Both the position numbers and the translations under genes were made by a program. Source: a virus. From it: a DNA stretch of 64,000 bases. The notes below the pieces were generated by a model. It did no database searches and was not told the origin of the DNA. It was given only the letters and a program-made list of their open reading frames with translations. The stretch covers positions 18,430 through 82,429 of the IMG/VR virus record IMGVR_UViG_3300048580_000994; one strand, given 5' to 3'. Shown in pieces: positions 2,338 through 32,824 of the stretch (position 1 is its first letter; every line of letters starts with the position of its first letter).

Positions 2338-2373
2338 TTGACATAATCTCCGGTTTCGGGTTATAAATAAAGG

Positions 2374-2432
2374 AGTGGGACAAGCCCTCCTCCGGTTGGG
2401 TTTCTATTGCCGCCACAGCAATGGATACCACT
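2374..2432 (+). ncRNA. Nuclease-divergent three-way-junction sRNA, copy 1
   Basis: AGTGG-GAC-AAGCCC-loop-GGGTTT-hairpin-GATA-CCACT downstream of TATAAATA; 7 copies in window. Confidence 0.75.
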
Positions 2433-2745
2433 AATTCTTTATATTATTTATCATTTTAGTTGTAAAAGTCAATATTATTTTTATCTTTCTATAGTTTAAT
2501 TAGAAAATCAAGTATATCATTCCAGTACAACGTAAGAAAATTTCAGGAAATCATCAGCTAACAAATCGCAAGGCTATAAAAACATTGAGCCAAGGGAAGT
2601 GCTTGGACAGGGCGAAATGATGAAATGAAATTAGTAAGACGTTTGAAAAAATGATTGAAAGATGAGTATTAGGTAAAACACCGGCATAGCATTGCGATTG
2701 GAGCCGGAGATTCTGTTCAAGTCAGACATGAAAGGCTAATTTAAT

Positions 2746-2826
2746 GGAAGGGCTGGGTACGAGTGAACCCAAGAGTCTGTAAAACTCCCCTTAACTGTGT
2801 GATGGTGCAAATTCCGTCCCCTTCCA
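2746..2826 (+). tRNA. tRNA-Tyr(GTA)
   Basis: Anticodon arm AGAGT-CTGTAAA-ACTCC; acceptor GGAAGGG/CCCTTCC. Confidence 0.8.
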
Positions 2827-2835
2827 CAAACAGAA

Positions 2836-2912
2836 CAACTTGATATGGTGTAATGGCTGCACGGACCACATGGAGTGGTCAGGTATTGGTTCAAATCCTT
2901 TCTCATTGTTGA
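2836..2912 (+). tRNA. Degenerate tRNA-Pro(TGG)
   Basis: D arm and anticodon arm GACCA-CATGGAG-TGGTC present; weak T and acceptor stems. Confidence 0.45.
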
Positions 2913-3034
2913 AGTTAAATCAAATCTGCAGGTTTGGTACTTCGTGTTCAGGGACGCTTGAACATTGTTCTGAAGATTTCCAGAGAGGTTTGTAAGTAGA
3001 CCCTGTAAGCGTTGACTGGGGAAACTTTCATTAT

Positions 3035-3120
3035 TCCGGGGTCGTCTAATTTGGTAGGACACCTGACTTTGAATCAGGGAGATTAACATCTCTGTGCAGG
3101 TTCGACTCCTGCTCCCGGAT
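3035..3120 (+). tRNA. tRNA-Gln(TTG) with long variable arm
   Basis: Anticodon arm CCTGA-CTTTGAA-TCAGG; extra arm GAGAT-TAAC-ATCTC. Confidence 0.9.
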
Positions 3121-3180
3121 CAAAAACAATAAGCGGTTGTAGGTGTAGACGTGTTAGATAGGAACCTTCATTTTTATTAT

Positions 3181-3256
3181 ATCGGTATAGTGTTAACGGT
3201 TAGCACGATGGTCTCCAAAACCACAAGTCAGGGTTCGAATCCTTGTACCGATGCCA
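3181..3256 (+). tRNA. tRNA-Trp(CCA)
   Basis: Anticodon arm ATGGT-CTCCAAA-ACCAC; encoded CCA. Confidence 0.9.
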
Positions 3257-3263
3257 AATTCAT

Positions 3264-3337
3264 ACTTCCGGATGGTGTGGGCACCTGTTATCCTTGACTC
3301 GGATGATGTTAGAGTTCAATTCTCTACGGAAGTACCA
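3264..3337 (+). tRNA. tRNA-Val(GAC), atypical
   Basis: Acceptor ACTTCCG/CGGAAGT-ACCA; anticodon loop TTGACTC. Confidence 0.65.
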
Positions 3338-3431
3338 AAATTGCATTCGTTAGGGTACCTTGATTATGTTGGTAAAAAATCTTGAGTATCTCAAAGCAAT
3401 ACCATCCAACAATGGTTAGTAAGGTTCGAAC

Positions 3432-4253
3432 TTACTTGATATATCTGGGTAATGTGTGGTTGCCAAATTCCCATAATACTATTCGAAGAAATAGTTCATT
3501 CAATGTTATAGTTGATGATATTCTTCTGTTAAAATTTTCTTTATATGGAACCATTTCTGCGTTTGCAGGATGTTTTATTAATTCAAATGATATATTATTT
3601 TTATATCCTTCTTGTATTTGGTATAAATGGTCCCAAGTAACTCCGGTGGGGTTTGGGTTCATTGCTGAATGTGGTCTATACCACCCATAGTTTTTGATCA
3701 TTTCAAAATCAAATAATTCACTATGTTTTTTGGAAGATAATGAAAACCTGCAACTTTTTCTGTAAAATGTTTTATTTTCATATCTACATTTTGTGCAATA
3801 ACAAGAACTTCTTGATGCTGGACTGATAAATATAATATTACATTTTTCACATTGTTTGTATTTAATATTTGTGGTTGGGTATTCTTTTGGTGCTTTATAT
3901 GTTGGTGATTTTGTTCTTGGATTTTGTTGGAAATATATTTTTAATTTTTTAGAAACAGTTAATCCAATTTGTTGTTTAGAAACATCTGATAGTGTCCAGC
4001 CATTTTCAATTCGTTTTTTATTAGTATAAGTAGCAGAACAAGAATGATTGCAGAAATCTTTTCTTTTATTATCATAATCAATAATTATACCGCAGCACAA
4101 ACATTTTTTAGGGTTTTGGTTGTATAGTTTGATGTTTTCGTTTTTAGTATGGTTGCCCAAACATTGTTTTGAGCAATAAGTCATTGATCTTTTATCTTTG
4201 ATTATAAATTCTTTTTTACATTCTTGGCATATAGCAGTTTTTTTAATTTTCAT
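3432..4253 (-). CDS. Free-standing HNH-type endonuclease with Zn-ribbon repeats
   Basis: Repeated CxxC..YCS/FCN..C motifs; C-terminal WDHLY...HPANA...EN motif. Confidence 0.75.
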   Translation of the reverse strand: MKIKKTAICQECKKEFIIKDKRSMTYCSKQCLGNHTKNENIKLYNQNPKKCLCCGIIIDYDNKRKDFCNHSCSATYTNKKRIENGWTLSDVSKQQIGLTVSKKLKIYFQQNPRTKSPTYKAPKEYPTTNIKYKQCEKCNIIFISPASRSSCYCTKCRYENKTFYRKSCRFSLSSKKHSELFDFEMIKNYGWYRPHSAMNPNPTGVTWDHLYQIQEGYKNNISFELIKHPANAEMVPYKENFNRRISSTITLNELFLRIVLWEFGNHTLPRYIK

Positions 4254-4289
4254 TTGACATAATCTCCGGTTTCGGGTTATAAATAAAGG

Positions 4290-4348
4290 AGTGGGACAAG
4301 CCCTCCTCCGGTTGGGTTTCCATTATCCGCTAAGTAATGGATACCACT
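4290..4348 (+). ncRNA. Nuclease-divergent sRNA, copy 2
   Basis: Near-identical to copy 1 except the second hairpin (CATTA-TCCGCTAAG-TAATG). Confidence 0.75.
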
Positions 4349-4400
4349 AATTCTTTATATTATTTATCATTTTGGTTGTAAAAGTCAATATTTAAATTAT

Positions 4401-4475
4401 GCTCGGTAGATCGCTGGGGCGACGATGATCCTTACAAGATTGTTGTGGTGGGTCCAATCCCCACACCGAGTACCA
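4401..4475 (+). tRNA. tRNA-Val(TAC)
   Basis: Anticodon arm TGATC-CTTACAA-GATTG; encoded CCA. Confidence 0.75.
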
Positions 4476-4564
4476 AATAAAAATTAAACTTCAATGGACA
4501 ATGGCGTATCCCGACATTGTGGGAAGTTTATACAGTTTTGTGGTATCTGTGTCAAACCACTTTT

Positions 4565-4644
4565 GGCCTGTGGGACTGCATGGTGTAGTCGCCCGCCTGT
4601 CACGCGGGAGGTTCAGAGGGGATCGTTACCCCTACAGGTCGCCA
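4565..4644 (+). tRNA. tRNA-Asp(GTC)
   Basis: Anticodon arm CCCGC-CTGTCAC-GCGGG; GCCA end. Confidence 0.85.
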
Positions 4645-4650
4645 AACCAT

Positions 4651-4790
4651 CGCAGAGCAAGTCCTTTCATTTGGGACGAAAGAGGGAGTAGGCACTTGAA
4701 GTCGAAACCGTGAGTGGTGCTGCAACCAATTTCCGAAAGGACTGGACAATAAAAGTCCAAGACTCGCAGCGATTCCCACCTCTGCAACCA
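4651..4790 (+). ncRNA. 140-nt initiator-tRNA-like RNA ending in ACCA
   Basis: Acceptor CGCAGAG/CTCTGCA-ACCA with C1:A72 mismatch; GTCCT-TTCATTT-GGGAC arm; expanded interior. Confidence 0.55.
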
Positions 4791-4793
4791 ATT

Positions 4794-4865
4794 CAGGGTG
4801 TAGCTTAAAAGAAAAGTGCTGGTCTCGGAAACCAGAGACTGGGTTTGCAAGATACCCCATCCTGA
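4794..4865 (+). tRNA. tRNA-Pro(CGG)
   Basis: Anticodon arm CTGGT-CTCGGAA-ACCAG. Confidence 0.85.
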
Positions 4866-4878
4866 CAAAATGTTTTAT

Positions 4879-4952
4879 GGGCTGTGTAATGGGGTTACGG
4901 GTGACTTTTGCAAAGTTGCTGATTCAGGAGGGTTCGATTCCCCCACGGTCCA
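4879..4952 (+). tRNA. tRNA-Ala(TGC)
   Basis: G3:U70; anticodon arm TGACT-TTTGCAA-AGTTG; T loop TTCGATT. Confidence 0.75.
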
Positions 4953-4958
4953 CTTAAT

Positions 4959-5030
4959 GGGGAATGGGCGAGGTACCCGGATAATCATGGCATGATTATA
5001 GCCTGATCGGAGCGTTACCGATATTCTCCA
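4959..5030 (+). tRNA. tRNA-Ala(GGC)
   Basis: Acceptor GGGGAAT/ATTCTCC with G3:U70; anticodon arm TAATC-ATGGCAT-GATTA. Confidence 0.7.
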
Positions 5031-5147
5031 CAAACAATTACCAAGATTGTATCGGTGAAAAAGTCTACGTAAAGTCGGGACGAATCGAACAAAAAGGTGT
5101 TAGAATATTGTTCATTTTGGTTAAAGACTGTGACCAAAAATATTAAT

Positions 5148-5221
5148 GCGGGTATGATGTAAAGGTTGCCTGAAGCGTTGCCAACGCTTACTTGGGATTT
5201 CGATTCCATCTAGGTACTCCA
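5148..5221 (+). pseudogene. Degenerate tRNA-Gly(GCC)
   Basis: Anticodon arm AAGCG-TTGCCAA-CGCTT intact but acceptor and T stems mispaired. Confidence 0.5.
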
Positions 5222-5260
5222 CTCATATAAATACTAAGTACAATTACGGAGGATAATTTT

Positions 5261-5785
5261 ATGAAAATACATGAAATCATATATGAGACACTTGGTGCTA
5301 CGTCATATCCATGGAAGTTAGTGGATCGATCAGCATCTAGCAATACCTATGAGTTTTTCAACGCACAACAGATAAAGTATATTGTAGACTTAATGCACAG
5401 TACTCAATTCTCAGAATTAGTTAAAGCTAAAATCGATATTGCTCGTGTTGTTTTTAGAAATCAAGTTTCAATTGATTCGAGTAAAGAAAATCTACACATC
5501 ACCAATACTGGTGATGCTTGGGGAGTATTCTCTACAGTAATAGATATTATAAAACACGCAATAAACGAGTCAAACTTTGATATTATTGTTTTTGAAGCCG
5601 ACAAGAAAGAGCCTAGTAGGGTTAGGTTGTATTCTACATTTATGTCACGTGTACAGCAAGTCCTGCCTAATTATATTGCAGCACCAGCAGTTGATGCAGA
5701 CTGGCTAATCAGATACAGGCTTGTGAAAAAAGATTCACCTTTGAATACTCCACTATTCATGTCCCCAAAGAAGAAAAAGAAGTAA
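5261..5785 (+). CDS. Hypothetical late protein (MKIHEI leader)
   Basis: GGAGG RBS and upstream TATAAATA. Confidence 0.7.
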   Translation: MKIHEIIYETLGATSYPWKLVDRSASSNTYEFFNAQQIKYIVDLMHSTQFSELVKAKIDIARVVFRNQVSIDSSKENLHITNTGDAWGVFSTVIDIIKHAINESNFDIIVFEADKKEPSRVRLYSTFMSRVQQVLPNYIAAPAVDADWLIRYRLVKKDSPLNTPLFMSPKKKKK

Positions 5786-5845
5786 TTTAAGCCGCTGGTG
5801 TTGGTTCGATTCCCTTCTGGTCCACGGAAAGATAAATAATATAAT

Positions 5846-5930
5846 GCGGGTGTCGCATAGCGGCTATTGCGCTTGCTTGCCAAGCAAGAGACCCTAAAGG
5901 TCATCACGGATTCGAGTTCCGTCACCCGCT
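5846..5930 (+). tRNA. tRNA-Gly(GCC) with long variable arm
   Basis: Anticodon arm CTTGC-TTGCCAA-GCAAG; extra arm GACC-CTAAA-GGTC. Confidence 0.85.
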
Positions 5931-5952
5931 CCTAATAATATTTAAAGTTTGA

Positions 5953-6023
5953 TTGGGTATCGTCTAGTGGTAAGACAAACGGCTGTTAACCGTTCAACCG
6001 AAGTTCGAATCTTCGTACCCGAA
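5953..6023 (+). tRNA. tRNA-Asn(GTT)
   Basis: Anticodon arm AACGG-CTGTTAA-CCGTT. Confidence 0.9.
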
Positions 6024-6045
6024 CTGAAAAGATAAATACAATAAT

Positions 6046-6117
6046 GGATCGTTAGCAAATCAACTAATGCGGCCGGCTGCAACCCGGCAGGACTCAGGGT
6101 AGCACTGAGACGGTCCT
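6046..6117 (+). tRNA. tRNA-Cys(GCA)
   Basis: Anticodon arm GCCGG-CTGCAAC-CCGGC; U73. Confidence 0.8.
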
Positions 6118-6153
6118 CTACAATTTTTAAATAAATAAATTGACATTTGATGA

Positions 6154-6792
6154 ATGAATATGATAAATAATAATATGACAAACTGTTATCAATATTATTA
6201 TTTATATCAAATCACTAATTTATTAGATGGTAAAATTTACATAGGAGTTCATAAAACAAATAATCTTGGTGATGGTTATTTGGGGTCTGGTACCCTTTTA
6301 TTGAGGGCATATAATAAGTATGGTGTTGAAAATTTTGAAAAACAAATTTTAGAATTTTTTGATAATGCTGATGATATGTTAATGAGAGAAAGTGTGGTTG
6401 TTAATTTGGATTTTATTAATAGGGATGATACTTATAATATTAAAACTGGTGGATTGCAGGGAATACTTGACCAACATACATTAAATAAAATAAAAGAAAC
6501 CTTTAAACTTAAAAAAATAAGTCATGGTGAGACAAATACACAGTTTGGTACAATGTGGATAACCAATGGGGTTGACAATAAAAAAATTAAAAAAGATGAT
6601 GAAATACCTTTTGGTTGGAAAAAGGGGAGGGTCATGCCATCTGATTGGGGTAAAAATATTGGGGATAAATTGAGGGGTAGAACTTTAGAGGATATTCAGG
6701 GTTATGAAAAAGCCCAACAAACTAAAAAACGTATTTCAAATTTTCAAAAAAATAAATATGCGTTGATTAAAAATAAAAATGATCTGGAGTGA
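6154..6792 (+). CDS. GIY-YIG homing endonuclease (T4 Seg-like)
   Basis: YLYQITNLLDGKIYIGVH...YLGSG...KYGVENF...YNIKTGG; located in a tRNA cluster like T4 segB. Confidence 0.9.
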   Translation: MNMINNNMTNCYQYYYLYQITNLLDGKIYIGVHKTNNLGDGYLGSGTLLLRAYNKYGVENFEKQILEFFDNADDMLMRESVVVNLDFINRDDTYNIKTGGLQGILDQHTLNKIKETFKLKKISHGETNTQFGTMWITNGVDNKKIKKDDEIPFGWKKGRVMPSDWGKNIGDKLRGRTLEDIQGYEKAQQTKKRISNFQKNKYALIKNKNDLE

Positions 6793-6922
6793 ATACCAGG
6801 GAGGACGATTACAAGATCGTAGATGAATGTCAGGATAATACAGAACCCCGGCTATAGGATGTTAAAAATATTTGTAAATACTATATAATCATATTATAAT
6901 AATGAATGATGGAGAATAAAAA

Positions 6923-7576
6923 ATGCGATTGCGAGAATTTTTACCGGGCAAATCATCTATTCAATTAATCTCTGAAGCCAGAGCGATGAAGGGTGATTAT
7001 GCTGCAGATGAACAATTCAAGGAAACGTTTTTATCACCATTGAGTAAAATAGTTTTTGAAAATAATTGGGAAGATTGTGATAATATTGATATTGATGGGC
7101 AAATAATGAAAATTATTGCCAGTAAATCGGATGACACTTATGCTGTTGGATATTGGAGAAATGATGAAAATCAGAAAACCATTTTTCAAAGAATTTGTGT
7201 TATACAACTTATTGATTGTTTGTATTTGGCGTCTAAGTTAAAAACTTATCCAGAAATGCGCCAAGTGACCATGATTTTTGTCACAGAAAGTTTTAGGAGT
7301 ACTAAAATTGCAAAAAAGATGTATCAATGGTTTGTTCAGCAAGGATTTTCATTAATAGGTGATGTTGAGCAATATTTTGGTGCAAGAAAATTGTGGTGTG
7401 CATTGTCAAAAATTTCCACTTTGCGTGTTGATGTTGTGAATAGGAACACAGGAACTATTATTCAACAAGGTAGAATTATAGAGCATGGTGAATTGGACCA
7501 TGAATTTGATAATGAGATATGGGCTTATGATAGTAGTAAAAATGATATTGGTTTGATATTGATTGATATTAGGTAA
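6923..7576 (+). CDS. Putative GNAT-fold protein (MRLREF leader)
   Basis: IFVTESFRSTKIAKKMY resembles acetyl-CoA motif A; GARKLW motif. Confidence 0.55.
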   Translation: MRLREFLPGKSSIQLISEARAMKGDYAADEQFKETFLSPLSKIVFENNWEDCDNIDIDGQIMKIIASKSDDTYAVGYWRNDENQKTIFQRICVIQLIDCLYLASKLKTYPEMRQVTMIFVTESFRSTKIAKKMYQWFVQQGFSLIGDVEQYFGARKLWCALSKISTLRVDVVNRNTGTIIQQGRIIEHGELDHEFDNEIWAYDSSKNDIGLILIDIR

Positions 7577-7583
7577 AAATTAT

Positions 7584-7658: not shown

Positions 7659-7670
7659 CGGATAAAAAAT

Positions 7671-9119: not shown

Positions 9120-10193
9120 TTATGGTATAAAATCACATTCCCATATGGTAATTAAATTAAATCCATCAGATAATAATTTATTTTCTCTTATTAATGTTGA
9201 TGTATATAGTTCACCGAATGTTTTCTTATTATTTGAATTAATATCTGATGGATTAAATTTAGATGGATTGCCGTGCCAATAATCACCATAAAATTCATAT
9301 ATAGTATTTGTTTCTGGGTTAAAGCCATCAACTTTTATTATTGATTTATCTGATAAAACTAATTCGATCTGTCTCATATTTTTTGGGATACCAATTGTGT
9401 CAAGCCATAAATTTTCTTTTTTACTTTGCAAACAATTTGGGCAATTCGAACCTGTCAAATGTAAGTCAGCTCTTTGTTGAAAAACACCATGTTTTTTACA
9501 AATTATATTGATTTTTGTTCTGGTGTTTATATATTCAACTAATGTGTAGTCATATTTATCACCATGAATTTTCTTGGCTTGTTCGATATATTCTGTTGTA
9601 GTTTTTCTGTTATTACCATAACATTTACTGCAACCAATACCAAGTAAATGTGTCCCAGGTGGTTGTTCAAAGTCGCCATGAATTGGGCAAGTTATTATTA
9701 TTTTTGTGGCTGCATTTATATATATAGTTTTATCATAATTATAAAAATTGTTGTGAATTGTTGATGCCTCTTTAATAAATTGTTCTTTTGTTTTTGTTTT
9801 ATTATCTGATGAGCACTTTGGGCATCCATGTCCACTAATATGATTGTCTGGTGTTTGTTCAAAATCACCATGAGTTGGGCATGTTATTACAATTTTATTA
9901 TCTGTTGATGTATAATTTATTTTATCATAATTATAAAAATTGTTGTGAATTGATGATGCTTCTTTAATAAATTGTTCTTTTGTTTTTCTACAACGTTGTG
10001 AGTTTTTTGCTCCTTTACATTTAGGACAACCATAACCTCTAGAATGGTTATCTGGTGTTTGTAAAAATATACCATGAGTTTTACAAATAATTTTTACTTT
10101 TTCTCTGGCTTTTTCATAAATGACAGATGTATAATCATATTTATTATTATGAATTTTTGATGATTTTTCTATAAATTTTAATAATTTTGACAT
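9120..10193 (-). CDS. Homing-type nuclease with tandem Zn-binding repeats (DUF723-like) and C-terminal PD-(D/E)xK/Vsr-like domain
   Basis: Four IICxxHGxFxQxPxxH..GCPKC repeats; VDGF...IYEFYGDYWHG...IWE. Confidence 0.8.
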   Translation of the reverse strand: MSKLLKFIEKSSKIHNNKYDYTSVIYEKAREKVKIICKTHGIFLQTPDNHSRGYGCPKCKGAKNSQRCRKTKEQFIKEASSIHNNFYNYDKINYTSTDNKIVITCPTHGDFEQTPDNHISGHGCPKCSSDNKTKTKEQFIKEASTIHNNFYNYDKTIYINAATKIIITCPIHGDFEQPPGTHLLGIGCSKCYGNNRKTTTEYIEQAKKIHGDKYDYTLVEYINTRTKINIICKKHGVFQQRADLHLTGSNCPNCLQSKKENLWLDTIGIPKNMRQIELVLSDKSIIKVDGFNPETNTIYEFYGDYWHGNPSKFNPSDINSNNKKTFGELYTSTLIRENKLLSDGFNLITIWECDFIP

Positions 10194-10684: not shown

Positions 10685-11860
10685 TTATTTTTTGTGTCTT
10701 GTCATTCCTCGCCAGAAACCTTCTGGTATTGTATCGTTATGATTTAATCTTGTATTAATTATTCCATTGGTTATATAAATTTTTCCAGACATAGATGCAC
10801 TTATTTTTTCTTTGTGTTCTTGGGTTTTTGATAAATGTTTGGATGTTATTACTATTGGTTGGATATTATTTTTATCCCAAGTTTGAATTTTTTTTATTAA
10901 TTCTTCGATGGACATTCCGATTCCAGTACCTTTAGTGATATTATCTAAATTGGATAATAATTGACAATTCGCTGGGTGTGATATAATTTTTGGGTCAATA
11001 TTATTTCTCCAGCCATATTCGACTGATATTATATGGTCTCTACAAACACCTTGTTTGTTATTAGTTGAATTGTAGAACCCATATTTTAATAATAAATCAT
11101 AGCCTTGTATATTTGGGTATAAGAAAACATCGAATAAAAATTTACATTCTTTTTTATAGATTTTTTTCTTATCTGTCATTTTTGTACCAGATTGTATTCT
11201 GTAATTTTGGTTTGCTATGGTTAATGTTCTTAAATTAATTCCTATTATTTTTAAAAACATTCCAAAATCACTATATTGGATTTTTAGATAGTTTTTAATT
11301 TCTTTTGCAGACATTTTTTCATTTGTGTATAGTCTATCTAATTCTTTTATTGAATTATTAATGTTTATTTGTGTTTGTTGATTGCCTAATTGAAAATTAA
11401 ATATATTAGCTAATTTTTTTGCAATCGGGAGTTTTGTTGGGTTATCCCACCCTGTGGCTGGTTTTAATTTAGGATGGTATATATTGCCTGTGATTGGGGA
11501 ATATTTAATTTTGGTATGTTGGTATTTGTTTTTTATTTTAATTGGGTTTTGTTTATTAATTTTTAATTTTTCAGATATTTGTTTTTTTGCGGTTTCAGGC
11601 ATTGCCCACCCGGTTTCTTTTCGTTTTTTATTATTATATTTAGCAGAACAAGAACTACTACAAAAATTGTTTGATTTATTATCATATTTTATCAAAATTC
11701 CACAATATAGACATTTTTTTGGGTTTTGGTTATATGTTTTGATGTTTTCATTTTTGGTATGATCGCCATAACATTTTGGTGAACAAAAAGTTGATGTTGT
11801 TTTTGCTGGTATAAATTCTTTTTTACATTCTGGGCATATAGCAGTTTTTTTCATTTGCAT
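10685..11860 (-). CDS. HNH-type endonuclease (Zn ribbons, HTH-like region, HPANC domain, NUMOD-like tail)
   Basis: RDHIIS...HPANC...DN motif; start moved to MQMKK after the CGGAGA RBS. Confidence 0.78.
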   Translation of the reverse strand: MQMKKTAICPECKKEFIPAKTTSTFCSPKCYGDHTKNENIKTYNQNPKKCLYCGILIKYDNKSNNFCSSSCSAKYNNKKRKETGWAMPETAKKQISEKLKINKQNPIKIKNKYQHTKIKYSPITGNIYHPKLKPATGWDNPTKLPIAKKLANIFNFQLGNQQTQININNSIKELDRLYTNEKMSAKEIKNYLKIQYSDFGMFLKIIGINLRTLTIANQNYRIQSGTKMTDKKKIYKKECKFLFDVFLYPNIQGYDLLLKYGFYNSTNNKQGVCRDHIISVEYGWRNNIDPKIISHPANCQLLSNLDNITKGTGIGMSIEELIKKIQTWDKNNIQPIVITSKHLSKTQEHKEKISASMSGKIYITNGIINTRLNHNDTIPEGFWRGMTRHKK

Positions 11861-11890
11861 TTTCTCCGAATAAAGTATATAAATAAAAGG

Positions 11891-11949
11891 AGTGGGACAA
11901 GCCCTTCTCCGATGGGTTTCCAATACTTCCGACGGTGTTGGATACCACT
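11891..11949 (+). ncRNA. Nuclease-divergent sRNA, copy 3
   Basis: AGTGG..AAGCCC-TTCTCCGAT-GGGTTT..CAATAC/GTGTTG..CCACT. Confidence 0.75.
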
Positions 11950-12002
11950 ACTATTTATATTATTTATCATTTTAGTTGTAATTGTCAATATTTAATTTTT
12001 AT

Positions 12003-12372: not shown

Positions 12373-12458
12373 GCGGGTAGCAGACATCTGGGGGTGTCAC
12401 CGGTCTTCCAAACCGGCTACTGTAAAAGGTATTTTGGATTCGATTTCCACTACCCGCT
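12373..12458 (+). tRNA. tRNA-Gly(TCC) with long variable arm
   Basis: Anticodon arm CCGGT-CTTCCAA-ACCGG; acceptor GCGGGTA/TACCCGC. Confidence 0.8.
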
Positions 12459-14135: not shown

Positions 14136-14170
14136 TTTGACTTATCTCCAGTCTAAAGTTATAAATAGAT

Positions 14171-14230
14171 GAGCGGGACAAGCCCTACTCCAGTTGGGTT
14201 TCAATTATCGTCAAATAATTGATACCGCTC
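14171..14230 (+). ncRNA. Nuclease-divergent sRNA, copy 4
   Basis: Covariant P1 GAGCGG/CCGCTC; loop TACTCCAGTT. Confidence 0.75.
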
Positions 14231-14299
14231 CTAATCTTATTTATCTTTTTGTTTCAGAATTGCGTATTTTATTTTTTTACCAATAAAGGAGGGACTATC

Positions 14300-14524
14300 A
14301 TGACCAATACACATACACAATGCGAGCTAAGACGTGGAAATTTCACACAAGTTGCTTGGATACCAAGCGAATATGCTACAGTCGGGAAGTATCTCAAATT
14401 GAAATATAATGGTACTTGGAACGATGGATGGAAAGTGGAACAATTGGGTTCATCCCAAGACAGTGACTTTACCAGAGAACGTTCACAAGATTATAAAAAT
14501 ATGAGAAAGATGACCGATATCTAG
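14300..14524 (+). CDS. Hypothetical protein
   Basis: AAGGAGG RBS before MTNTHTQC. Confidence 0.6.
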   Translation: MTNTHTQCELRRGNFTQVAWIPSEYATVGKYLKLKYNGTWNDGWKVEQLGSSQDSDFTRERSQDYKNMRKMTDI

Positions 14525-16593: not shown

Positions 16594-16625
16594 CTAAGTA
16601 ATTTGTATTAAAGGACTCTATTAAT

Positions 16626-17492
16626 TTAGAGTCCTTTTTCTTTTTTAACATACTCCCAATTTAGATTTTCATATTTGTCTATGATAAGAAAATTCTTATT
16701 GTATATTTTTAACCATTTATCGATCCTAACCATTTGTTCTGGATTTTTCCAAGCCTTTGGGTCAAGATATAAATTAAAATCTGGTAAGAAAAAATCTGGT
16801 GTGTATGAACTGCCGCCACCAATCCAAAAATGATATGCTCGTTTCCATTTTATTCCTGCTTTATCAAGTTCATTTGCCATTTTCCATTCCCAAGTAGAAT
16901 CTAACTGGCATTCCCTTCCAAAAGAATCTATATATTGAATTTTTTTGGACCAACCACTGGCTGATCTCCATTCTGGGTGTAGTGCAATCCCGCTTGGGTT
17001 TGCCAAACAGCGTTGTCTGAGTTTTTCTTTTGTTTCGTCTGAGTGTGTGGTTTGTAATCCAGATGTAAATTGATTACCAAAAGATTCGTGGGTTGAACCT
17101 AATTTATATAAATGAGTATCTTGGTGTTGTATACCATTTTCAGTATGAGATAGCCAATAATGTGATAATAACGATGTTCTTGAATTAAAATTTTGTTGGC
17201 AATTCGGACATACCCATAAATTATTAATTAGACAATCATTTGTTATTATAGATGCAACATTAGTTTTTAATTTGTTTGGTCCAGTAAAATAAGTCCCGTC
17301 ACAGGAGTCATTGTGTTTTTTAAAATTGCTTTTAGATATTTCTCTGTTGCATTTTTCGCAGCATTTTGTTGCTTTTAATGCAGTTGATAAATTTTCGCTT
17401 CTGCATTTATCTGAACAATAATTTTTTCTTCTATTGGTTGTTGTGAATGCTGTTTTGCAGTGCTGGCATATTTTAGTTTTTTCTTTGCTCAT
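16626..17492 (-). CDS. Zn-finger PD-(D/E)xK homing-type nuclease
   Basis: STWE...YTPDFFLPDFNLYLDPK; N-terminal CxxC/C2H2 fingers; HSDETKEKL NUMOD3-like motif. Confidence 0.78.
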   Translation of the reverse strand: MSKEKTKICQHCKTAFTTTNRRKNYCSDKCRSENLSTALKATKCCEKCNREISKSNFKKHNDSCDGTYFTGPNKLKTNVASIITNDCLINNLWVCPNCQQNFNSRTSLLSHYWLSHTENGIQHQDTHLYKLGSTHESFGNQFTSGLQTTHSDETKEKLRQRCLANPSGIALHPEWRSASGWSKKIQYIDSFGRECQLDSTWEWKMANELDKAGIKWKRAYHFWIGGGSSYTPDFFLPDFNLYLDPKAWKNPEQMVRIDKWLKIYNKNFLIIDKYENLNWEYVKKEKGL

Positions 17493-17532
17493 TTTATTGA
17501 CCTCTCTAAAATTAAATGTTATAAATAAGAAT

Positions 17533-17596
17533 TAGCGGGACAAGCCCATTCACTCTTGGTGGGTTTTCCGAACCTCAGAAATTTGGAATACCGCTA
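17533..17596 (+). ncRNA. Nuclease-divergent sRNA, copy 5
   Basis: P1 TAGCGG/CCGCTA; P2 AAGCCCA..TGGGTTT; P3 TCCGAA/TTTGGA. Confidence 0.72.
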
Positions 17597-17662
17597 CTAT
17601 TATTATTTATCAATTATGAATTAAAAAGTGTAATAAAGTCAATATAATAAGGAGAAATATAT

Positions 17663-27474: not shown

Positions 27475-27911
27475 AACCTGAAATAACATATTTTCCCAGT
27501 GGTCCAAAACATCAAGAAACTTGGTATTTGGATGATTATGACACTGTGCATCGTATTGGTGGACCTGCAAATCAACAATGGTACACAAATGGGTTATTAT
27601 TTAGCGAGGCATGGATGGAATATGGTTTGCTTCATCGTGTTGATGGACCTGCAATAAGATTTTGGTTTAGAAATGGGCAGTTGCGTTCGATTAGATGGGC
27701 TATCAATGGAAAAACACATCGTATTGGTGGTCCAGCATTTCAAACTTGGGATGAAAATTGGCAAAAACAAAAAGAACAATGGTGGGTGAATGACATTGAA
27801 AAAACCAATGAAATCCTTCAATGGATAGAAAAAGATAATATTGAGTTGGATGAAAATCACAGCATCGTCAAGAAGAACGATTTAATGATTTTTAAATTGA
27901 AATTTGGCTGA
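27471..27911 (+). CDS. HRxxGPA-repeat (MORN-like) protein
   Basis: Three HR(I/V)xGPA repeats; ends IFKLKFG. Confidence 0.75.
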   Translation: MKPEITYFPSGPKHQETWYLDDYDTVHRIGGPANQQWYTNGLLFSEAWMEYGLLHRVDGPAIRFWFRNGQLRSIRWAINGKTHRIGGPAFQTWDENWQKQKEQWWVNDIEKTNEILQWIEKDNIELDENHSIVKKNDLMIFKLKFG

Positions 27912-28497
27912 GTTATGTTATAATGAGAATTATCTATGTGTGTGCTGGGGAAGATTTTTCCCATTCGTATGTGACCCTGCTTTATTCTCAATCCGAGCAG
28001 GAGTGTACCCGAGACCAGCAGCAGTGTTCTTTAGTGAGCATCAGTCCCCAAATTTGAGACACTGGGAACGGTAGATAATAAACTAAATACCTTTATAACC
28101 CCTTTGAGAATTTTAATTATGGATAAAGATTTTGAAGATCATATAAAAAGTGTTAAAGAAAGTTCTGAAAAATTTAGAGAAGAACATGAGGAAGAACTGC
28201 TTGAACGATGCAGAAATGTATTAACAGATGATTTTGAAACAAGGGCTGCAGAATTGCAAATTCGTTCAAAAATTTTTAGAGAAGAAAATAAAGAAAAATT
28301 AAAATATATGCTTTTGAAAGCCAACGAAGGTCTTAAAAATATGGGAAAATAATAAAAATAATTATTGACTGTAATGACATTTTAGGATATATTGGGAAAA
28401 TAAGAAGTAGGAAATAATTTTTTGAGAATCGTTGAAAAAAATTAAACGGATTTTGAAATGGACGATAAATAAAAATATGAAGTAAAGGTTACAATTT

Positions 28498-28569
28498 GCG
28501 TCGTTAGTTCAGCGGTAGAACTCTGTCTTTACACGGCAGCTGTCGGTGGTTCGATCCCATCACGACGCA
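28498..28569 (+). tRNA. tRNA-Val(TAC)
   Basis: Anticodon arm CTGTC-TTTACAC-GGCAG. Confidence 0.92.
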
Positions 28570-28579
28570 CTTATAATTT

Positions 28580-28651
28580 TGGGGTATAGTTCAGCGGTAG
28601 AACACCGGTCTGTTAAACCGGGAGCCATTGGTTCGAATCCAATTTCCCCAG
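28580..28651 (+). tRNA. tRNA-Asn(GTT)
   Basis: Anticodon arm CCGGT-CTGTTAA-ACCGG. Confidence 0.9.
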
Positions 28652-28674
28652 CTGATATGATAAATAAAGAGATT

Positions 28675-28748
28675 CGGAGTGTGGGCCAAAGGCTGGCCGC
28701 CAGTTTTGGGAACTGGACATCGAGTGAGTTCGATTCTCACCACTCCGA
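28675..28748 (+). tRNA. tRNA-Pro(TGG)
   Basis: Anticodon arm CCAGT-TTTGGGA-ACTGG; acceptor CGGAGTG/CACTCCG. Confidence 0.85.
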
Positions 28749-28786
28749 CTTACTAATAAAATCAATAGGTTAGCAGAAATGTTAGC

Positions 28787-29389
28787 CTATTTTTTATATT
28801 TTTCTTCCCACAATCTTACTCTTTCAAATAACTCGTCTATCGTTATGGATGAATTATGGTTCTTGCGTGAATTATCAGATTGTGAAATTAATTTACAATT
28901 CGCTGGGTGACTTATAAAAAACGGGTCTATTTTATTTTTAAAACCATCAGCCATGCTATACATGTGATCCCTTGATATTCCCCCTTTATTTGTCAGAGAA
29001 TTAAACATCCCATGTTGTATTAATAATTTAAAATCAAATTCTTCTGGATAATCTTTGATGTTAAATAAAAACTTTGATTGTTCTTTGTATTGTTTTTTAT
29101 CGTTCATAAAATCAATTGGTTTAACACGTAATTCATTGTTGAATTTTGCAGCACAAGAACTTGAGCAGAACTTTCTTTGGTGCCATACTGTTAAATAATT
29201 ATCACAACAAATACATTTTCGTAGCTTTGATTGGTATTTTATTAATAAATCTGCAGCTATAATTCGTTTGGTTAAAATACAAGAACATTTTGGTCTTGTG
29301 ATTGTACCATTTGATAATCCATGCATTCTCATATGCCCAGATAGAGCATTTTGGTTTTTAAATTCTTTTTGGCATATATCACATTTCAT
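28787..29389 (-). CDS. C2H2/Zn-ribbon HNH-type endonuclease
   Basis: CDICQKEF...HMRMH finger; RDHMYS...HPANC...DN. Confidence 0.78.
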   Translation of the reverse strand: MKCDICQKEFKNQNALSGHMRMHGLSNGTITRPKCSCILTKRIIAADLLIKYQSKLRKCICCDNYLTVWHQRKFCSSSCAAKFNNELRVKPIDFMNDKKQYKEQSKFLFNIKDYPEEFDFKLLIQHGMFNSLTNKGGISRDHMYSMADGFKNKIDPFFISHPANCKLISQSDNSRKNHNSSITIDELFERVRLWEEKYKK

Positions 29390-29426
29390 CTTGCGTTTTC
29401 TCCGGTATAAGTGTATAAATAATGAA

Positions 29427-29485
29427 AGTGGGACACCCCATCCTCCGGTGGACTTCAGTTGTCAACAATACTCCTGATCACCACT
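29427..29485 (+). ncRNA. Nuclease-divergent sRNA, copy 6 (divergent)
   Basis: AGTGGGACA..CCA-TCCTCCGG-TGG..TCAG/CTGA..CCACT downstream of TATAAATA. Confidence 0.65.
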
Positions 29486-29575
29486 ATTAGTATTATTTAT
29501 CATTATGGTTATAAAAGTCAATAATTATGTTGACATGATTGCTAAATAAGTGTAGTATCTAAAAGTAAGATTAAT

Positions 29576-29650
29576 GGATCGGCCAGCGGTATTTACTGGA
29601 GGGTTTTCTTCTAAAAAACTCATATGCGGGTTCAACTCCCCAACGGTCCT
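29576..29650 (+). tRNA. tRNA-Arg(TCT), atypical
   Basis: Anticodon arm GTTTT-CTTCTAA-AAAAC. Confidence 0.6.
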
Positions 29651-29700
29651 CTGAAAATGTTTGACAAAGTATGGAGAAAAAGGTATATTAATAAAATCAA

Positions 29701-29772
29701 CTGCCCATAGTAAAAGGGATATTACAGGAGTCTTCTAAACTCTTAGTCCAGGTTCGAATCCTGGTGGGCAGG
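29701..29772 (+). tRNA. tRNA-Arg(TCT)
   Basis: Anticodon arm GGAGT-CTTCTAA-ACTCT. Confidence 0.9.
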
Positions 29773-29959
29773 CTAAATTCTCCAACAATATCAATGACTT
29801 ACAACTAAAATCCCCCATAAAATTCCAAGAATTATTTCTTGGAATTTTTTTTATTGACAAATCATCAAAAATGGGACAAGATGATAAATAATAGTATGGA
29901 AAGAAATTCCATTGGGATTTTTAGAAGTTCCATATTAATCCAAGAAGGAGGATACAATT

Positions 29960-30208
29960 ATGGTAAGTGCAATATCTGGTGTTAGTCATTCTGCTCAACG
30001 GGCATATGCTGTTCAAATGCAGAGTATTTTATCACAAAACCGTCAAGAAGAGCGTCAAGCTGTAGCGGCGATTTCTGGTGTTTCGTCTGTATTATCTGGA
30101 CAAGTTCAAGCTGAACAAAAGCCAAAGGAAGAAAAGAAAACTGAACAACCAACCACACAATATGCTTCGGCTGAAGGTCGGGGTAAGAGTGTTAATATAG
30201 TGGTGTAA
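29960..30208 (+). CDS. Small low-complexity protein, YjfB/motility-protein-like C terminus
   Basis: Ala/Gln-rich helix ending GRGKSVNIVV; AAGGAGG RBS. Confidence 0.5.
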   Translation: MVSAISGVSHSAQRAYAVQMQSILSQNRQEERQAVAAISGVSSVLSGQVQAEQKPKEEKKTEQPTTQYASAEGRGKSVNIVV

Positions 30209-30211
30209 GAA

Positions 30212-30451
30212 ATGGCAACAGAGAATGATTTTGTAAATTATCCGAGAATGGTTAGTGGATATTGGGTTCACAATGCTGCTGCAGATGCTGTAGCATCGAG
30301 GGGGCTTGATCCAAAGACTACACCACCAACACAAGATTATAGTTTACCTGTGACTGCATCATTTGCCAATACAGGATTAAACAATCGTTTATCTGGTGGG
30401 TTGAATAGTTTTATCAATGAACTATCGACTTCATATTCTAAAAAAGAGTAA
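30212..30451 (+). CDS. Hypothetical protein
   Basis: Coupled to the previous gene. Confidence 0.55.
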   Translation: MATENDFVNYPRMVSGYWVHNAAADAVASRGLDPKTTPPTQDYSLPVTASFANTGLNNRLSGGLNSFINELSTSYSKKE

Positions 30452-30599
30452 TTTATTCTTTTTTGATAAATAGTCATACTATGGATGAATTTGACAAAAG
30501 ATTAAGACAGAAGATTAAAGAATATATAAGAAAAAACAAGGAGCGTTTGAAGAAGCTTTTCAAGCGCAAGAAACCTGTGTCTGAATCTGGTGAAAAGAA

Positions 30600-31187
30600 A
30601 TGAGATTGTATGAAATAACACGAATAACAAAAAACTCCCAAGCCACCAGAATATTAAAAAGATCTGGGTGGGAAATTGCTGGTGAAGGCGCGAACGCTAC
30701 TGTGTATTTTCGTGAGGACAAACCATATGTTTTAAAAATATTTACTCCTTATGATAGTGCGTTTGTTGCTTATATAAAATTTTGTCAAAAAAATTCAAAC
30801 CCGCATTTCCCTAAATTTTATAAGGATATTGTTAAAATAACTAAAAATTTGTGTGCTATTAGAATGGAGAGGTTGTATCCATTGGATGAAACAGAAGAAA
30901 TTATAACAGGGTTAGAAATATTGGCTTCGTATATTTCAAAATATTCTATTGATCCATCGTTTCTTTCGCATTCACCAGAAAAATTAGAAAATTTTTTGAA
31001 AGAAGTGGTTGAAAAACGAAATGATGTTCTTAATTATTTTGATGAATCTGTGGTGGCAGCTGCAGAATTGGTACCTGATATTGCTAAAAATAGAGGACAT
31101 TTAGATATGCATCCACGTAATTTTATGCAACGATTGGATGGTACATTAGTTTTTTCTGACCCTATTACTACTTTTTTTGGGAGATAG
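30600..31187 (+). CDS. Ser/Thr protein kinase-like protein (MRLYEI leader)
   Basis: GEGANATVY Gly loop, VLK, MERL, DMHPRN catalytic loop, SDP. Confidence 0.8.
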   Translation: MRLYEITRITKNSQATRILKRSGWEIAGEGANATVYFREDKPYVLKIFTPYDSAFVAYIKFCQKNSNPHFPKFYKDIVKITKNLCAIRMERLYPLDETEEIITGLEILASYISKYSIDPSFLSHSPEKLENFLKEVVEKRNDVLNYFDESVVAAAELVPDIAKNRGHLDMHPRNFMQRLDGTLVFSDPITTFFGR

Positions 31188-31189
31188 AA

Positions 31190-31615
31190 ATGAGATTGTA
31201 TGAACTATCATTAGTTTCCAAAAAATGGTTAAATTCACCCACTGAAGGATTTTTGGAACCAACTGTGGAAAACATTTCGAAGGCGAAAGAGTTTGTATTT
31301 CGTAAATGGAAGGAGCGTGCTATTGAGCGAATGGAACGTGAACCATTAGATTTATCCACTGCTTGTAAATTCAGTTCATTATTTGTGAAGATGGTATTTG
31401 GCGGGACGATAAAGGGGACATGGGAGCATCAATACAATGACATTAATGGGGTAGTGGTTGACCTAAACAGCGATGCTGGGGACGTTTTAAGGCTACTGGA
31501 GCCACATAAGCATGATAGAAGGTTCATTGGTAACAGGGAGCATAATGAGTCGTTAGAGTCTTGCATTCCAAGGGTGAAACGTTGGGTAGAAGAATTTCAT
31601 AATAGTGTCAGTTAA
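31190..31615 (+). CDS. Hypothetical protein (MRLYEL leader), possible papain/transglutaminase-like fold
   Basis: ACKFSS...EHQYN...VVDL spacing suggests a Cys-His-Asp triad. Confidence 0.5.
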   Translation: MRLYELSLVSKKWLNSPTEGFLEPTVENISKAKEFVFRKWKERAIERMEREPLDLSTACKFSSLFVKMVFGGTIKGTWEHQYNDINGVVVDLNSDAGDVLRLLEPHKHDRRFIGNREHNESLESCIPRVKRWVEEFHNSVS

Positions 31616-31693
31616 TGGTCTGATTGTGGTGATAAATACTTTTGTGGAATAATCTTTCCACAAAAATCCCAACAATTTAGGAGTGATTTAATT

Positions 31694-31837
31694 ATGGTCA
31701 CCACAATAGCCAAGAACTACATTAATGAAATATTAAAAGGCGAGCGTCAACTTCAAAAGATTGAGAAGACTGAGCAGAAGGTTGAGCAGGAAAAATTCCG
31801 CAAAGACGAGTCAAAAAATATTGATATTTTGGTGTGA
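31694..31837 (+). CDS. Small protein ending KNIDILV
   Basis: Manual translation; AGGAG RBS and upstream GATAAATA. Confidence 0.5.
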   Translation: MVTTIAKNYINEILKGERQLQKIEKTEQKVEQEKFRKDESKNIDILV

Positions 31838-31845
31838 TTTAAGTT

Positions 31846-32646
31846 TTATTTTTTGATAGCACTAAACCCCAACCTATTTAATAGGGAGTATACAGTCCCT
31901 ATGTTATCGTGTTTTATGATTTTAGTTATTTCTGAAACAGTATAATTATCACAAAGATTTTTTATATGTTGTTTCATGGAGTTCCAATCATTAATAAATT
32001 CTTTTGTTTTTAGGTTATCCAAACGTAATCCAAAATATTTATTACAACCTTTCATTATTTGGATTGAATAGTTTATATTACAAGAACAATCCTTTTTATG
32101 TTCTCCGCAGCAGTGACAAATTTTTATTTTCTCCCAAGATAATTTTGGGGTCCATGGTCCTTTTGGTCCTATCCACCCTTGACCAATATATTCTTCGATT
32201 AAATGTTTTGGGATTTTGATTCGTAAATTATCTATCCAAGAATGAACCATCCAAGTGGTTCCGAATTGGGAATTTAATTTTCCGCCTTGTGAGTTATTCA
32301 TTGTGACAGGCATATTTTTTCTGGCATATTCATAAAGATGAGAATTAAAATATCTATTTTGGTTGTGAGATATAGATGAACTTTTCATCATATTAAGTGC
32401 TTTAACCATACTATACCATTCTATGGATTTTTCAGGTAACATTTTACAGAGTAGATAGTGACAAATAAAATGTTCTCTGGCTGTTAATAAGATTAAATTA
32501 TTTGTATTATCCAATCCACCTAATGACCTTGGTAGTATATGGTGTTTTTCATAATAAGTTTCTTTGGATTTAATTCTTTGTTGTGATTTGGCGTTTTGGA
32601 TAATTCCATAATACCAGTTATAATATTTGTTTTTTATAAAAATCAT
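31846..32646 (-). CDS. HNH homing endonuclease, paralog of 13095-14135
   Basis: YYEKHHILPRSLGG...LTAREHFICHYLL. Confidence 0.88.
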   Translation of the reverse strand: MIFIKNKYYNWYYGIIQNAKSQQRIKSKETYYEKHHILPRSLGGLDNTNNLILLTAREHFICHYLLCKMLPEKSIEWYSMVKALNMMKSSSISHNQNRYFNSHLYEYARKNMPVTMNNSQGGKLNSQFGTTWMVHSWIDNLRIKIPKHLIEEYIGQGWIGPKGPWTPKLSWEKIKICHCCGEHKKDCSCNINYSIQIMKGCNKYFGLRLDNLKTKEFINDWNSMKQHIKNLCDNYTVSEITKIIKHDNIGTVYSLLNRLGFSAIKK

Positions 32647-32682
32647 TTTGACTTATCTCCAGTCTAAAGTTATAAATAGATG

Positions 32683-32742
32683 AGCGGGACAAGCCCTACT
32701 CCAGTTGGGTTTTTCAGATGGTCGAATCTCTGAAATACCGCT
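32683..32742 (+). ncRNA. Nuclease-divergent sRNA, copy 7
   Basis: Identical to copy 4 up to P2, different P3 (TCAGA-TGGTCGAATC-TCTGA). Confidence 0.75.
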
Positions 32743-32824
32743 ACTATTATTTATCTTTTTCTTTCATTTTTGTGTAAAAATAATTTGACAAAATGATAAA
32801 TAAAGTTTACTATATAATTAATAT

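Follow-up and report, generated by a model that had tools for sequence, protein, structure and literature searches.

A repeated three-way-junction RNA cassette facing homing-endonuclease-like genes in a probable T4-related lake phage: a candidate antisense brake on translation

The viral record IMGVR_UViG_3300048580_000994 of IMG/VR carries a repeated + strand cassette whose promoter-like sequences face genes of the minus strand, most of them for free-standing nucleases. The stretch analysed here (bases 18430–82429 of the record, 64,000 nucleotides (nt), hereafter the window) contains eight of these cassettes and two more lie upstream of it, making ten in the record. Each consists of a + strand promoter-like sequence (TTGACA-N17/18-TATAAATA), a 58–80-nt three-way junction of helices P1, P2 and P3, and a facing GATAAATA promoter-like motif, and the + promoter overlies the ribosome-binding site (RBS) of the minus-strand gene. 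Judged from sequence and folding models, the cassette is, with a probability of roughly 0.6, a gene for a small antisense RNA that limits how far the facing selfish gene is translated. The + promoter, lying over the Shine–Dalgarno sequence (SD) and start codon of the nuclease gene, would start the RNA about 5 nt downstream, at P1, and the facing GATAAATA, with a TTGACT −35 in several copies, would start the nuclease mRNA just outside P1′; both starts are predicted from motifs. The leader of this mRNA would be unusually long and the exact complement of the small RNA. The P2 loop would then pair with the RBS and block 30S binding, and the leader duplex may add decay of the RNase III type. Since the proposed brake is confined to a short loop, the same cassette could serve nuclease genes whatever their family, and its + promoter probably also feeds the next + strand gene or tRNA.

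An earlier note on this DNA, made from the sequence alone, had reported seven cassettes, and a search with the core GYGGGACAMSCCC recovered all of them on the + strand (2375, 4291, 11892, 14173, 17535 and 32684, with a one-mismatch copy at 29428). Allowing up to two mismatches, the core gave eight matches against 1.8 expected, one of which (11438, minus strand) arose by chance; over the entire 82,429-base record there were eight forward and no reverse matches, and the control gave none. Copy 8, which belongs to the same sequence family as copies 1–7, lies 640 bases upstream of the window. In copies 1–7 the parts follow the order TATAAATA, 4–6 nt, P1 (AGYGG), GAC, P2, P3, ATA, P1′ (CCRCT), about 10 nt and TTATTTATC. 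P1 is AGTGG/CCACT or AGCGG/CCGCT, P2 is AAGCCC-loop-GGGTTT in six window copies, with copy 6 deviating, and P3 has 7–8 bp and is different in each copy; the covarying P1, the shared P2 and the copy-specific P3 described in the earlier note could be read in every copy. The TTATTTATC after the junction is invariant, and its complement GATAAATAA is oriented toward the nuclease gene. Two coordinates required correction: the AGCGG of copy 4 begins at 14172, not 14171, and the third nuclease gene, whose start had been placed at 11860, likely begins at 11854, the in-frame ATGs at these positions lying 3 nt and 9 nt from GGAG, respectively. Cassettes c9 and c10 retain the architecture despite entirely different stems, all three stems of c9 being unlike those of copies 1–7.

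In the eight-copy alignment, 92.4% of the cells pair, compared with 31–45% when the partners are slid by 1–3 columns; both partners have changed in all seven pairs of P3 and in one of P1, and the covariation score was reached by none of 500 shuffles. When three further members of this subfamily, found in two other phage contigs, are added, in an alignment made to the model and thereby favouring it, 93.9% of the cells pair and both sides have changed in 13 of 18 pairs (two in P1, four in P2 and seven in P3), with compensatory changes present in all three helices. A wider set of 24 elements was compiled, ten from this record and 14 from elsewhere (four other viral and three metagenome contigs), which includes paralogues and is thus of incomplete independence. 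Its mean z-score against dinucleotide shuffles is −4.0, and the three-way junction is the minimum free energy (MFE) topology in 18 of the 24 elements versus 9.7% of 4,800 shuffles; c9 has the junction as its MFE fold with a z-score of −8.2, and the weakest fold is that of copy 6 (z −0.83). In a comparison of whole-strand MFE, the + strand was more stable in 20 of the 24 elements (mean −4.1 kcal/mol, Wilcoxon p = 0.0005) and the minus strand folded better in four, while 59 of 571 pairs are G-U on the + strand, compared with 22 of 533 on its complement. These folding models support the assignment of the structured RNA to the + strand, as had been claimed.

The link between the RNA and the gene it faces lies in the P2 loop. 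In the + promoter, the spacer is the reverse complement of the partner's SD region, and the same 7–9 nt return in the P2 loop (Table 1). The P2 hairpin as a whole repeats, in diverged form and direct orientation, the stretch from the −35 to the spacer and is therefore antisense to the nuclease mRNA from SD to start codon (8–20 nt). Among 21 non-redundant elements, the computed duplex of P2 with the start region averages −14.1 kcal/mol for cognate and −9.2 kcal/mol for non-cognate combinations, a difference reached in none of 200,000 permutations and found equally in an 11-element set, whereas the control region P3+P1′ gives no signal (cognate −8.1 versus non-cognate −8.5 kcal/mol). With their own start regions, copies 1, 3 and 6 reach −20.6, −14.5 and −15.0 kcal/mol, respectively. 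The earlier statement that the loop tracks the SD of its own gene thus persists in the enlarged set and extends to other phages, and it stands for six of the seven copies, copy 5 pairing weakly. Moreover, the searches that yielded the outside copies never demanded a loop match, and the analysis shows that the predicted correspondence of loop and RBS is retained across all sequence variants of the cassette, those of other phages included.

The promoter-like motifs are not peculiar to the cassettes. Within the window TATAAATA occurs 24 times (9.3 expected) and TATTTATC/GATAAATA 35 times (7.1 expected); on either strand KATAAATA stands before genes and tRNAs and reads the same way as they do, frequently with TTGACA 17–18 nt upstream, and it resembles the T4 late promoter. 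The motif after each cassette is the complement of KATAAATA and is oriented toward the nuclease gene, which bears out the earlier description of a minus-strand promoter-like motif beyond each copy, with GATAAATA facing the + promoter. A sigma-70-like TTGACT-18-AATAAT overlaps this facing motif in copies 1, 2, 3 and 6 (beyond that of copy 1, given in Table 1, the minus-strand arrangement is found at 4388–4359, 11988–11959 and 29521–29492), and another lies close by in copy 5. In all ten copies of the record the facing promoter-like motifs are 68–85 bp apart, and the predicted start points bracket the junction. By itself the nuclease leader does not hide its SD, whose unpaired probability is 0.52 versus 0.47 with a shuffled leader; since the leader alone leaves the SD open, a second RNA is the simplest repressor. 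Two ideas about the leader were set aside: an upstream open reading frame (ORF), for which a TTG start exists in the mirrored core of copies 1 and 4 with a frame and position that are not kept across copies, and an anti-SD switch internal to the mRNA, the CUCC after mirrored P1 being limited to copies 1, 2, 3 and 8.

The cassette also behaves as a unit separable from the enzyme. Copy 2 equals copy 1 save for P3 (P1+P2 identical at 33 of 33 positions, P3 at 18 of 24), with promoter and tail nearly identical and coding regions alike at 81 of 145. Copies 3 and 8 are identical in P1+P2, their coding regions are divergent and their partners come from different nuclease families; in both pairs the coding regions are about 50–56% alike. 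Because the regulatory parts are identical and the coding parts divergent, the cassette has been exchanged independently of the enzyme. The proposal of a nuclease-plus-small-RNA module therefore holds in that the cassette stands beside nucleases, unrelated ones among them, and needs amending in that it recombines apart from the coding sequence and also heads ORFs of 58–64 amino acids (aa). Copies 4 and 7 show no difference at 73 flank positions and 12 differences at 26 positions of P3 (Fisher p = 1e-8); for the other three pairs the difference between P3 and flank has p values of 0.0004 to 0.025. That the cores of copies 1/2 and 4/7 are identical except for P3 had been recognised before. P3, which is a self-paired hairpin, may matter in its sequence, and its hypervariability may make paralogous pairs distinguishable. 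A bolder extension of the antisense reading, which we advance only tentatively, is that the cassette is a portable, programmable translation brake, in which the start region of a landed selfish gene (about 8–20 nt) is copied into the P2 loop and P3 acts as an address that would allow a dozen paralogous pairs to work without cross-talk, a role likened to that of the incompatibility loops of plasmid antisense RNAs.

Several points weigh against a translation-restraining antisense RNA. For neither strand is there an observed transcript, 5′ end or 3′ end, the 15 sequencing runs found to contain 9.9 kb of the window being all of lake-water DNA and none of RNA. There is no canonical terminator after the junction in the copies inspected, and the RNA may be the leader of a longer + transcript. 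The MFE fold consists of two hairpins in six elements (copies 1, 2, 3, 6 and 8, and G1d, an element outside copies 1–8), so that in these five copies the two-hairpin alternative, not the junction, is preferred, and in copies 1, 2, 3 and 8 this fold engages the anti-SD with a 5′ GGAG. Only six of the 21 elements have the cognate start region as the single best target of the loop, and cognate pairing is weak in copy 5 (−5.4 kcal/mol, rank 18 of 21), G1d (−7.9 kcal/mol) and G1f (−6.0 kcal/mol). A duplex-orientation test was tied, the proposed orientation being better in 11 of 22 cases and worse in 11 of 22 (p = 0.56); the direction therefore rests on fold asymmetry and promoter geometry, and the use of four single differences (c8, L040, L063 and L073), read as G-U pairs, as evidence of direction was dropped because the systematic test was tied. 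An mRNA starting at GATAAATA would offer in its leader a perfect 60–85-nt partner that could out-compete the RBS. Two minus-strand nuclease genes (9120–10193 and 34675–35976) have ordinary promoters and no cassette, and control by the cassette is not universal within this phage. In the copies found outside this genome by pattern scan, TATAAATA and TATTTATC were required by the pattern, and their conservation there is by selection.

Four other explanations have to be set against the antisense reading. It is unlikely that the cassette is essentially an outward promoter with a stabilising leader, in which the nuclease gene is an insertion opposed to a + strand array of tRNAs and genes, its terminator stops the upstream flow of transcription, the cassette promoter restarts it, the junction protects or processes the transcript, and any effect on the nuclease is incidental. 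Such a role would fit the hairpin terminators that overlap the stop codons of three of the seven first-reported nuclease genes (1592–1623, 16610–16637 and 28764–28791, at the partners of copies 1, 5 and 6), the tRNA, or the ORF equipped with an SD of its own, that comes next on the + strand after the cassette (at 14300 for copy 4 and 17663 for copy 5), the predicted 5′ end paired in P1 and the lack of a terminator after the junction. However, it leaves unexplained why P2 copies and tracks the RBS of the opposite-strand gene, and a separate + strand TTGACA-N17-TATAAT directly after copies 6 and 7, copies a, b, c and g of contig G001 and the metagenome element L123 makes the cassette promoter superfluous there; moreover, it is compatible with an antisense function. 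Rather improbable, in turn, is a functional RNA on the other strand, namely the leader of the nuclease mRNA, either with the mirrored junction displaying a second SD-like loop as a standby site or decoy, or with the leader hiding the RBS. The same-sense copy of the SD region, the tied direction test and the four elements that fold better on the minus strand are in its favour, but in the other 20 the + strand is the more stable, most G-U pairs are on that strand, the SD is no less accessible with the leader than with a shuffled one, and TATAAATA aims away from the nuclease gene, so that no late transcript would bypass the hairpin as in T4; furthermore, a ribosome needs only GGAG and not the 3–5 co-varying bases that flank it.

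The tied test and the presence of the spacer and P2 repeats as a direct DNA repeat, 40–50 bp apart, would also suit an element acting as DNA, in which the repeats are sites of a repressor protein or are kept alike by local gene conversion. This is highly improbable, since three compensating helices and the strand asymmetry would remain unexplained, the repeats differ among copies of one genome and could not all be read by one protein, and exact repeats of 7–9 nt are too short for ordinary conversion. Finally, the earlier note had left two functions side by side, an antitoxin-like translational silencer and an RNA cofactor whose variable P3 sets specificity. The former is the better supported of the two in silico, whereas a cofactor or guide has next to no likelihood. 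The hypervariability of P3 between identical flanks is what speaks for it, but P3 is fully self-paired, unlike a guide, and nothing links it to a DNA target: an 11-mer match elsewhere in the 82 kb, which represent a third of the genome, was found for two of ten P3 sequences versus 144 of 200 random genomic 24-mers. Moreover, a single mode of RNA binding is unlikely across HNH, MobE-like, GIY-YIG and DUF723-type enzymes and a 58–64-aa ORF, and the Rfam models of HEARO (RF02033) and omega RNA gave no match.

The small antisense RNA proposed here is closest in kind to c4 RNA of P1/P7, RNA-OUT of IS10 and art200 of IS200, and is a member of none of these families. In P1 and P7, c4 is a folded RNA with loops complementary to a ribosome-binding region encoded elsewhere, and loop and target co-vary to give new specificities; it lies on the same strand, upstream in the transcript of its own target, and controls an antirepressor. 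The c4 RNA acts in trans to repress Ant synthesis (PMC8546580). It is the closest known system in how specificity is written, the cassette loop being likewise complementary to the RBS region of its target and co-varying with it; in contrast, the structured strand of the cassette is opposite the target gene, and there is no match to the Rfam C4 model (RF01695). In T-even phages, homing endonuclease genes such as I-TevI and its relatives have a hairpin that hides the RBS, within which lies a late promoter in the direction of the gene. The cassette would similarly limit or delay translation of a homing endonuclease, with a TATAAATA motif beside the RBS; however, this motif is on the opposite strand and the leader leaves the SD open. 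Unlike in type I toxin–antitoxin systems, the targets are not genes of small toxic peptides, the nuclease genes encoding 197–391 aa and the soluble-looking ORFs 34–64 aa.

Among insertion sequences, IS10/Tn10 encodes RNA-OUT, a short structured antisense RNA with an outward promoter facing the transposase promoter, whose pairing blocks ribosome binding and whose first 35 nt are the direct complement of the transposase start region (PMC5006887). The cassette, as proposed, would likewise place the enzyme gene of a mobile element under an antisense RNA from an outward promoter. In the cassette, by contrast, the small-RNA promoter occupies the DNA of SD and start codon and the RNA begins beyond it, so that the complement of the SD falls within the promoter spacer, before the predicted + start, and the RNA is not a direct complement of the IS10 type; the anti-RBS is a separate, duplicated loop segment, and the RNA is a three-way junction rather than a single hairpin and targets phage homing endonucleases. 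The art200 RNA, encoded opposite the 5′ untranslated region of the enzyme gene of the mobile element IS200, inhibits the initiation of translation (PMC4513863); it overlaps the start region directly, in a bacterial insertion sequence, and lacks a loop duplicate and a variable arm. The nearest published item found is CfrI of cyanophage S-PM2, an antisense RNA between psbA and a homing endonuclease gene (PMC12197685). It likewise belongs to a T4-type phage and lies beside a free-standing homing endonuclease gene, while the cited passage describes it as single, neither repeated nor portable, and without an RBS-matched loop.

The earlier view that the RNA belongs to no named family agrees with these comparisons and with Rfam. 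Scanned against Rfam 15, the whole window matched only the tRNA and tRNA-Sec models, 29 times in all and never at a cassette, and permissive scans of copy 1 and c10 (E up to 10) gave chance matches of 8–17 bits against gathering scores of 46–91. A tRNA-like identity was rejected, none of the 32 tRNA genes found by ARAGORN and none of the Rfam tRNA matches overlapping a cassette. In the literature on homing endonucleases combined with antisense or small RNA, Shine–Dalgarno or three-way junction in phages, no such cassette was found described.

Further copies, in this record and in other contigs, were sought in several ways. A covariance model built from eight copies (the seven and copy 8) and searched with filters off scored these copies at 71–97 bits and matched G000:1257–1346 in this record (28 bits, E = 0.004), which precedes a DUF723-type nuclease gene; the c9 region (60309–60387) scored about 18 bits (17.7), within noise. 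Read by eye, both are three-way junctions with wholly different stems and the same layout, which brings the record to ten copies. A scan of viral contigs that demanded TTGAC, TATAAATA and TATTTATC at set spacings and nothing else gave 27 loci, six of them true cassettes in four contigs, each with its own loop/spacer match, and 21 that are not cassettes. On metagenomes the same pattern gave three new elements among 108 distinct matches, 103 of which are not cassettes. L067 was likewise rejected, for a weak fold and the lack of an ORF, and L197, with a 22-bit model match, is a candidate. For the copies from the pattern scans, neither fold nor loop match nor neighbouring gene was part of the selection. 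Searches of whole records found at least nine copies in a related 359-kb, 94%-complete phage and two in a 90-kb contig, and homologues of c9 with a swapped P3 were found in two other phage contigs. Two copies found via the covariance model end in TATTTATT, not TATTTATC. A phage collection gave no DNA match, whether queried with 4 kb in megablast or with copy 1 in blastn, and a pattern of the core plus GGGTTT in viral contigs gave 25 loci, all by chance, one of them a tRNA. In the one cultured phage checked, Sinorhizobium phage phiN3, which has a relative of a MobE-like partner, the 241 bases around the gene start contain no TATAAATA and no cassette-like stretch.

Partners were tallied for 26 elements, the 24 compiled and two later copies. 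Nineteen match families annotated as endonucleases (among them phrog_655/MobE-like HNH, phrog_23051 type, phrog_559/681 DUF723 type, GIY-YIG, DUF7487 and phrog_314). The partner of element L068 matches only phrog_22677, an unannotated family that also matches the C-termini of four of the 19 nucleases. Four cassettes head an ORF of 34–64 aa, followed by an HNH-like gene, a phrog_559-type gene, an intein-bearing dUTPase or a TnpB-like gene; one element faces a 26-codon remnant and one is cut by a contig end. In the c9-type subfamily the cassette heads an ORF of 58–64 aa and the following gene varies, that downstream of the c9 ORF matching phrog_23051 and phrog_1271. In a 90-kb viral contig (G003), a 417-aa TnpB-like protein with a Cas12f1-like TNB domain (3.9e-16; L066:35–1288, minus strand) is encoded directly behind a c9-type cassette and a 59-aa ORF, where the window has the HNH-like gene; in a 74-kb viral contig (G002), a c9-type cassette is followed by the N-terminal part of a dUTPase fused to an intein splicing domain (L064:728–1267) and then by an HNH-like ORF (L064:1–723). 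The remnant belongs to L123, where the cassette is intact with a 9-nt loop/spacer match and the 26-codon partner begins like a GIY-YIG enzyme; from its sequence, it looks like a decayed nuclease whose control cassette has been left behind.

Table 1. Cassettes, their partner genes and associated sites; positions are those of the window, and the last column gives the sequence shared by the + promoter spacer and the P2 loop.
Feature	Position	Strand	Details	Shared sequence
Cassette copy 1	2339–2452	+	−35 TTGACA 2339–2344; spacer holds CTCCGGTT, the reverse complement of the nuclease SD; TATAAATA 2362–2369; junction 2374–2432; TATTTATC 2445–2452; model 96.6 bits	CTCCGGTT
Promoter-like site of nuclease gene 1	2443–2472	−	TTGACT-18-AATAAT overlapping GATAAATA	
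Partner of copy 1, homing-endonuclease-like, 239 aa	1618–2337	−	Pfam HNH_repeat 7.5e-11; phrog_23051 C-terminal domain 1.1e-16	
Cassette copy 2	4255–4368	+	TATAAATA 4278–4285; junction 4290–4348; TATTTATC 4361–4368; model 97.1 bits	CTCCGGTT
Partner of copy 2, nuclease-like, 273 aa	3432–4253	−	phrog_23051 6.6e-28	
Cassette copy 3	11855–11968	+	−35 TTGCAT; spacer TTCTCCGA; TATAAATA 11878–11885; junction 11891–11949; TATTTATC 11961–11968; 93.3 bits	TTCTCCGA
Partner of copy 3, HNH-type nuclease	10685–11860	−	phrog_23051 6.1e-26; phrog_1271 HNH endonuclease 9.2e-9	
Cassette copy 4	14137–14245	+	−35 TTGACT; spacer CTCCAGT; TATAAATA 14160–14167; junction 14172–14229; TATTTATC 14238–14245; 95.9 bits; MFE fold is the junction	CTCCAGT
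Partner of copy 4, MobE-like HNH homing endonuclease, 346 aa	13095–14135	−	phrog_655 4.2e-37; tblastn to genes annotated MobE homing endonuclease	
Cassette copy 5	17497–17611	+	−35 TTGACC; TATAAATA 17520–17527; junction 17534–17595; TATTTATC 17604–17611; 85.6 bits	
Partner of copy 5, resolvase-like or PD-(D/E)xK-like C-terminus, 288 aa	16626–17492	−	phrog_9019 Holliday junction resolvase 5.7e-10; phrog_15137 endonuclease 3e-5	
Cassette copy 6, divergent core	29391–29501	+	TATAAATA 29414–29421; junction 29427–29485; TATTTATC 29494–29501; 70.8 bits	CTCCGGT
Partner of copy 6, nuclease-like, 200 aa	28787–29389	−	phrog_23051 1.9e-37; N-terminal C2H2 zinc finger	
Cassette copy 7	32648–32755	+	TATAAATA 32671–32678; junction 32683–32742; TATTTATC 32748–32755; 89.9 bits	CTCCAGT
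Partner of copy 7, MobE-like HNH homing endonuclease, 266 aa	31846–32646	−	phrog_655 2.9e-33	
Cassette c9, divergent	60271–60395	+	TTGACA 60271–60276; spacer GTCCTCCAT; TATAAATA 60295–60302; junction 60307–60385; TATTTATC 60388–60395	CCTCCAT
ORF headed by c9, 58 aa	60101–60277	−	no Pfam family; overlaps start of HNH-like gene 59064–60104	
Cassette c10				CCTAATG

The record has a CheckV completeness of 33%, and the window has a GC content of 35%, tRNA genes on the + strand only and T4-type topoisomerase II genes, with Ralstonia phage RsoM2USA as the top tblastn match (44% identity); the source is probably an uncultured, T4-related freshwater phage of about 250 kb. At several places (5831–5838, 28659–28666, 58716–58723 and others) GATAAATA or TATAAATA stands 6–9 nt before the 5′ end of a tRNA, and individual tRNAs may, by these motifs, have a T4-late-like promoter of their own and nearly no leader. 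At 46466–46503, tandem overlapping GATAAATA/TATAAATA motifs (TAAATA repeated) lie directly ahead of a + strand ORF. The Rfam tRNA-Sec model matches 12373–12457 with 49.1 bits against a gathering score of 47. Terminators at three nuclease 3′ ends, together with an outward promoter, would insulate insertions from the + strand array.

Homing endonucleases have to be expressed enough to spread and not so much as to harm the phage, and the controls known from T4-type phages are hairpins and autorepression of single genes. Here, one exchangeable RNA cassette serves nuclease genes of at least four unrelated kinds, which suggests a common RNA-based solution. The cassette may also explain how antisense-oriented insertions persist within tRNA arrays without silencing the genes behind them, and its natural pairs of loop and target, with their built-in covariation, are a resource for studying how antisense specificity evolves. 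Should the tentative idea of a portable brake with a P3 address be true, these cassettes would constitute a natural family of orthogonal riboregulators and a hitherto unseen level at which T4-type phages keep their homing endonucleases in check.

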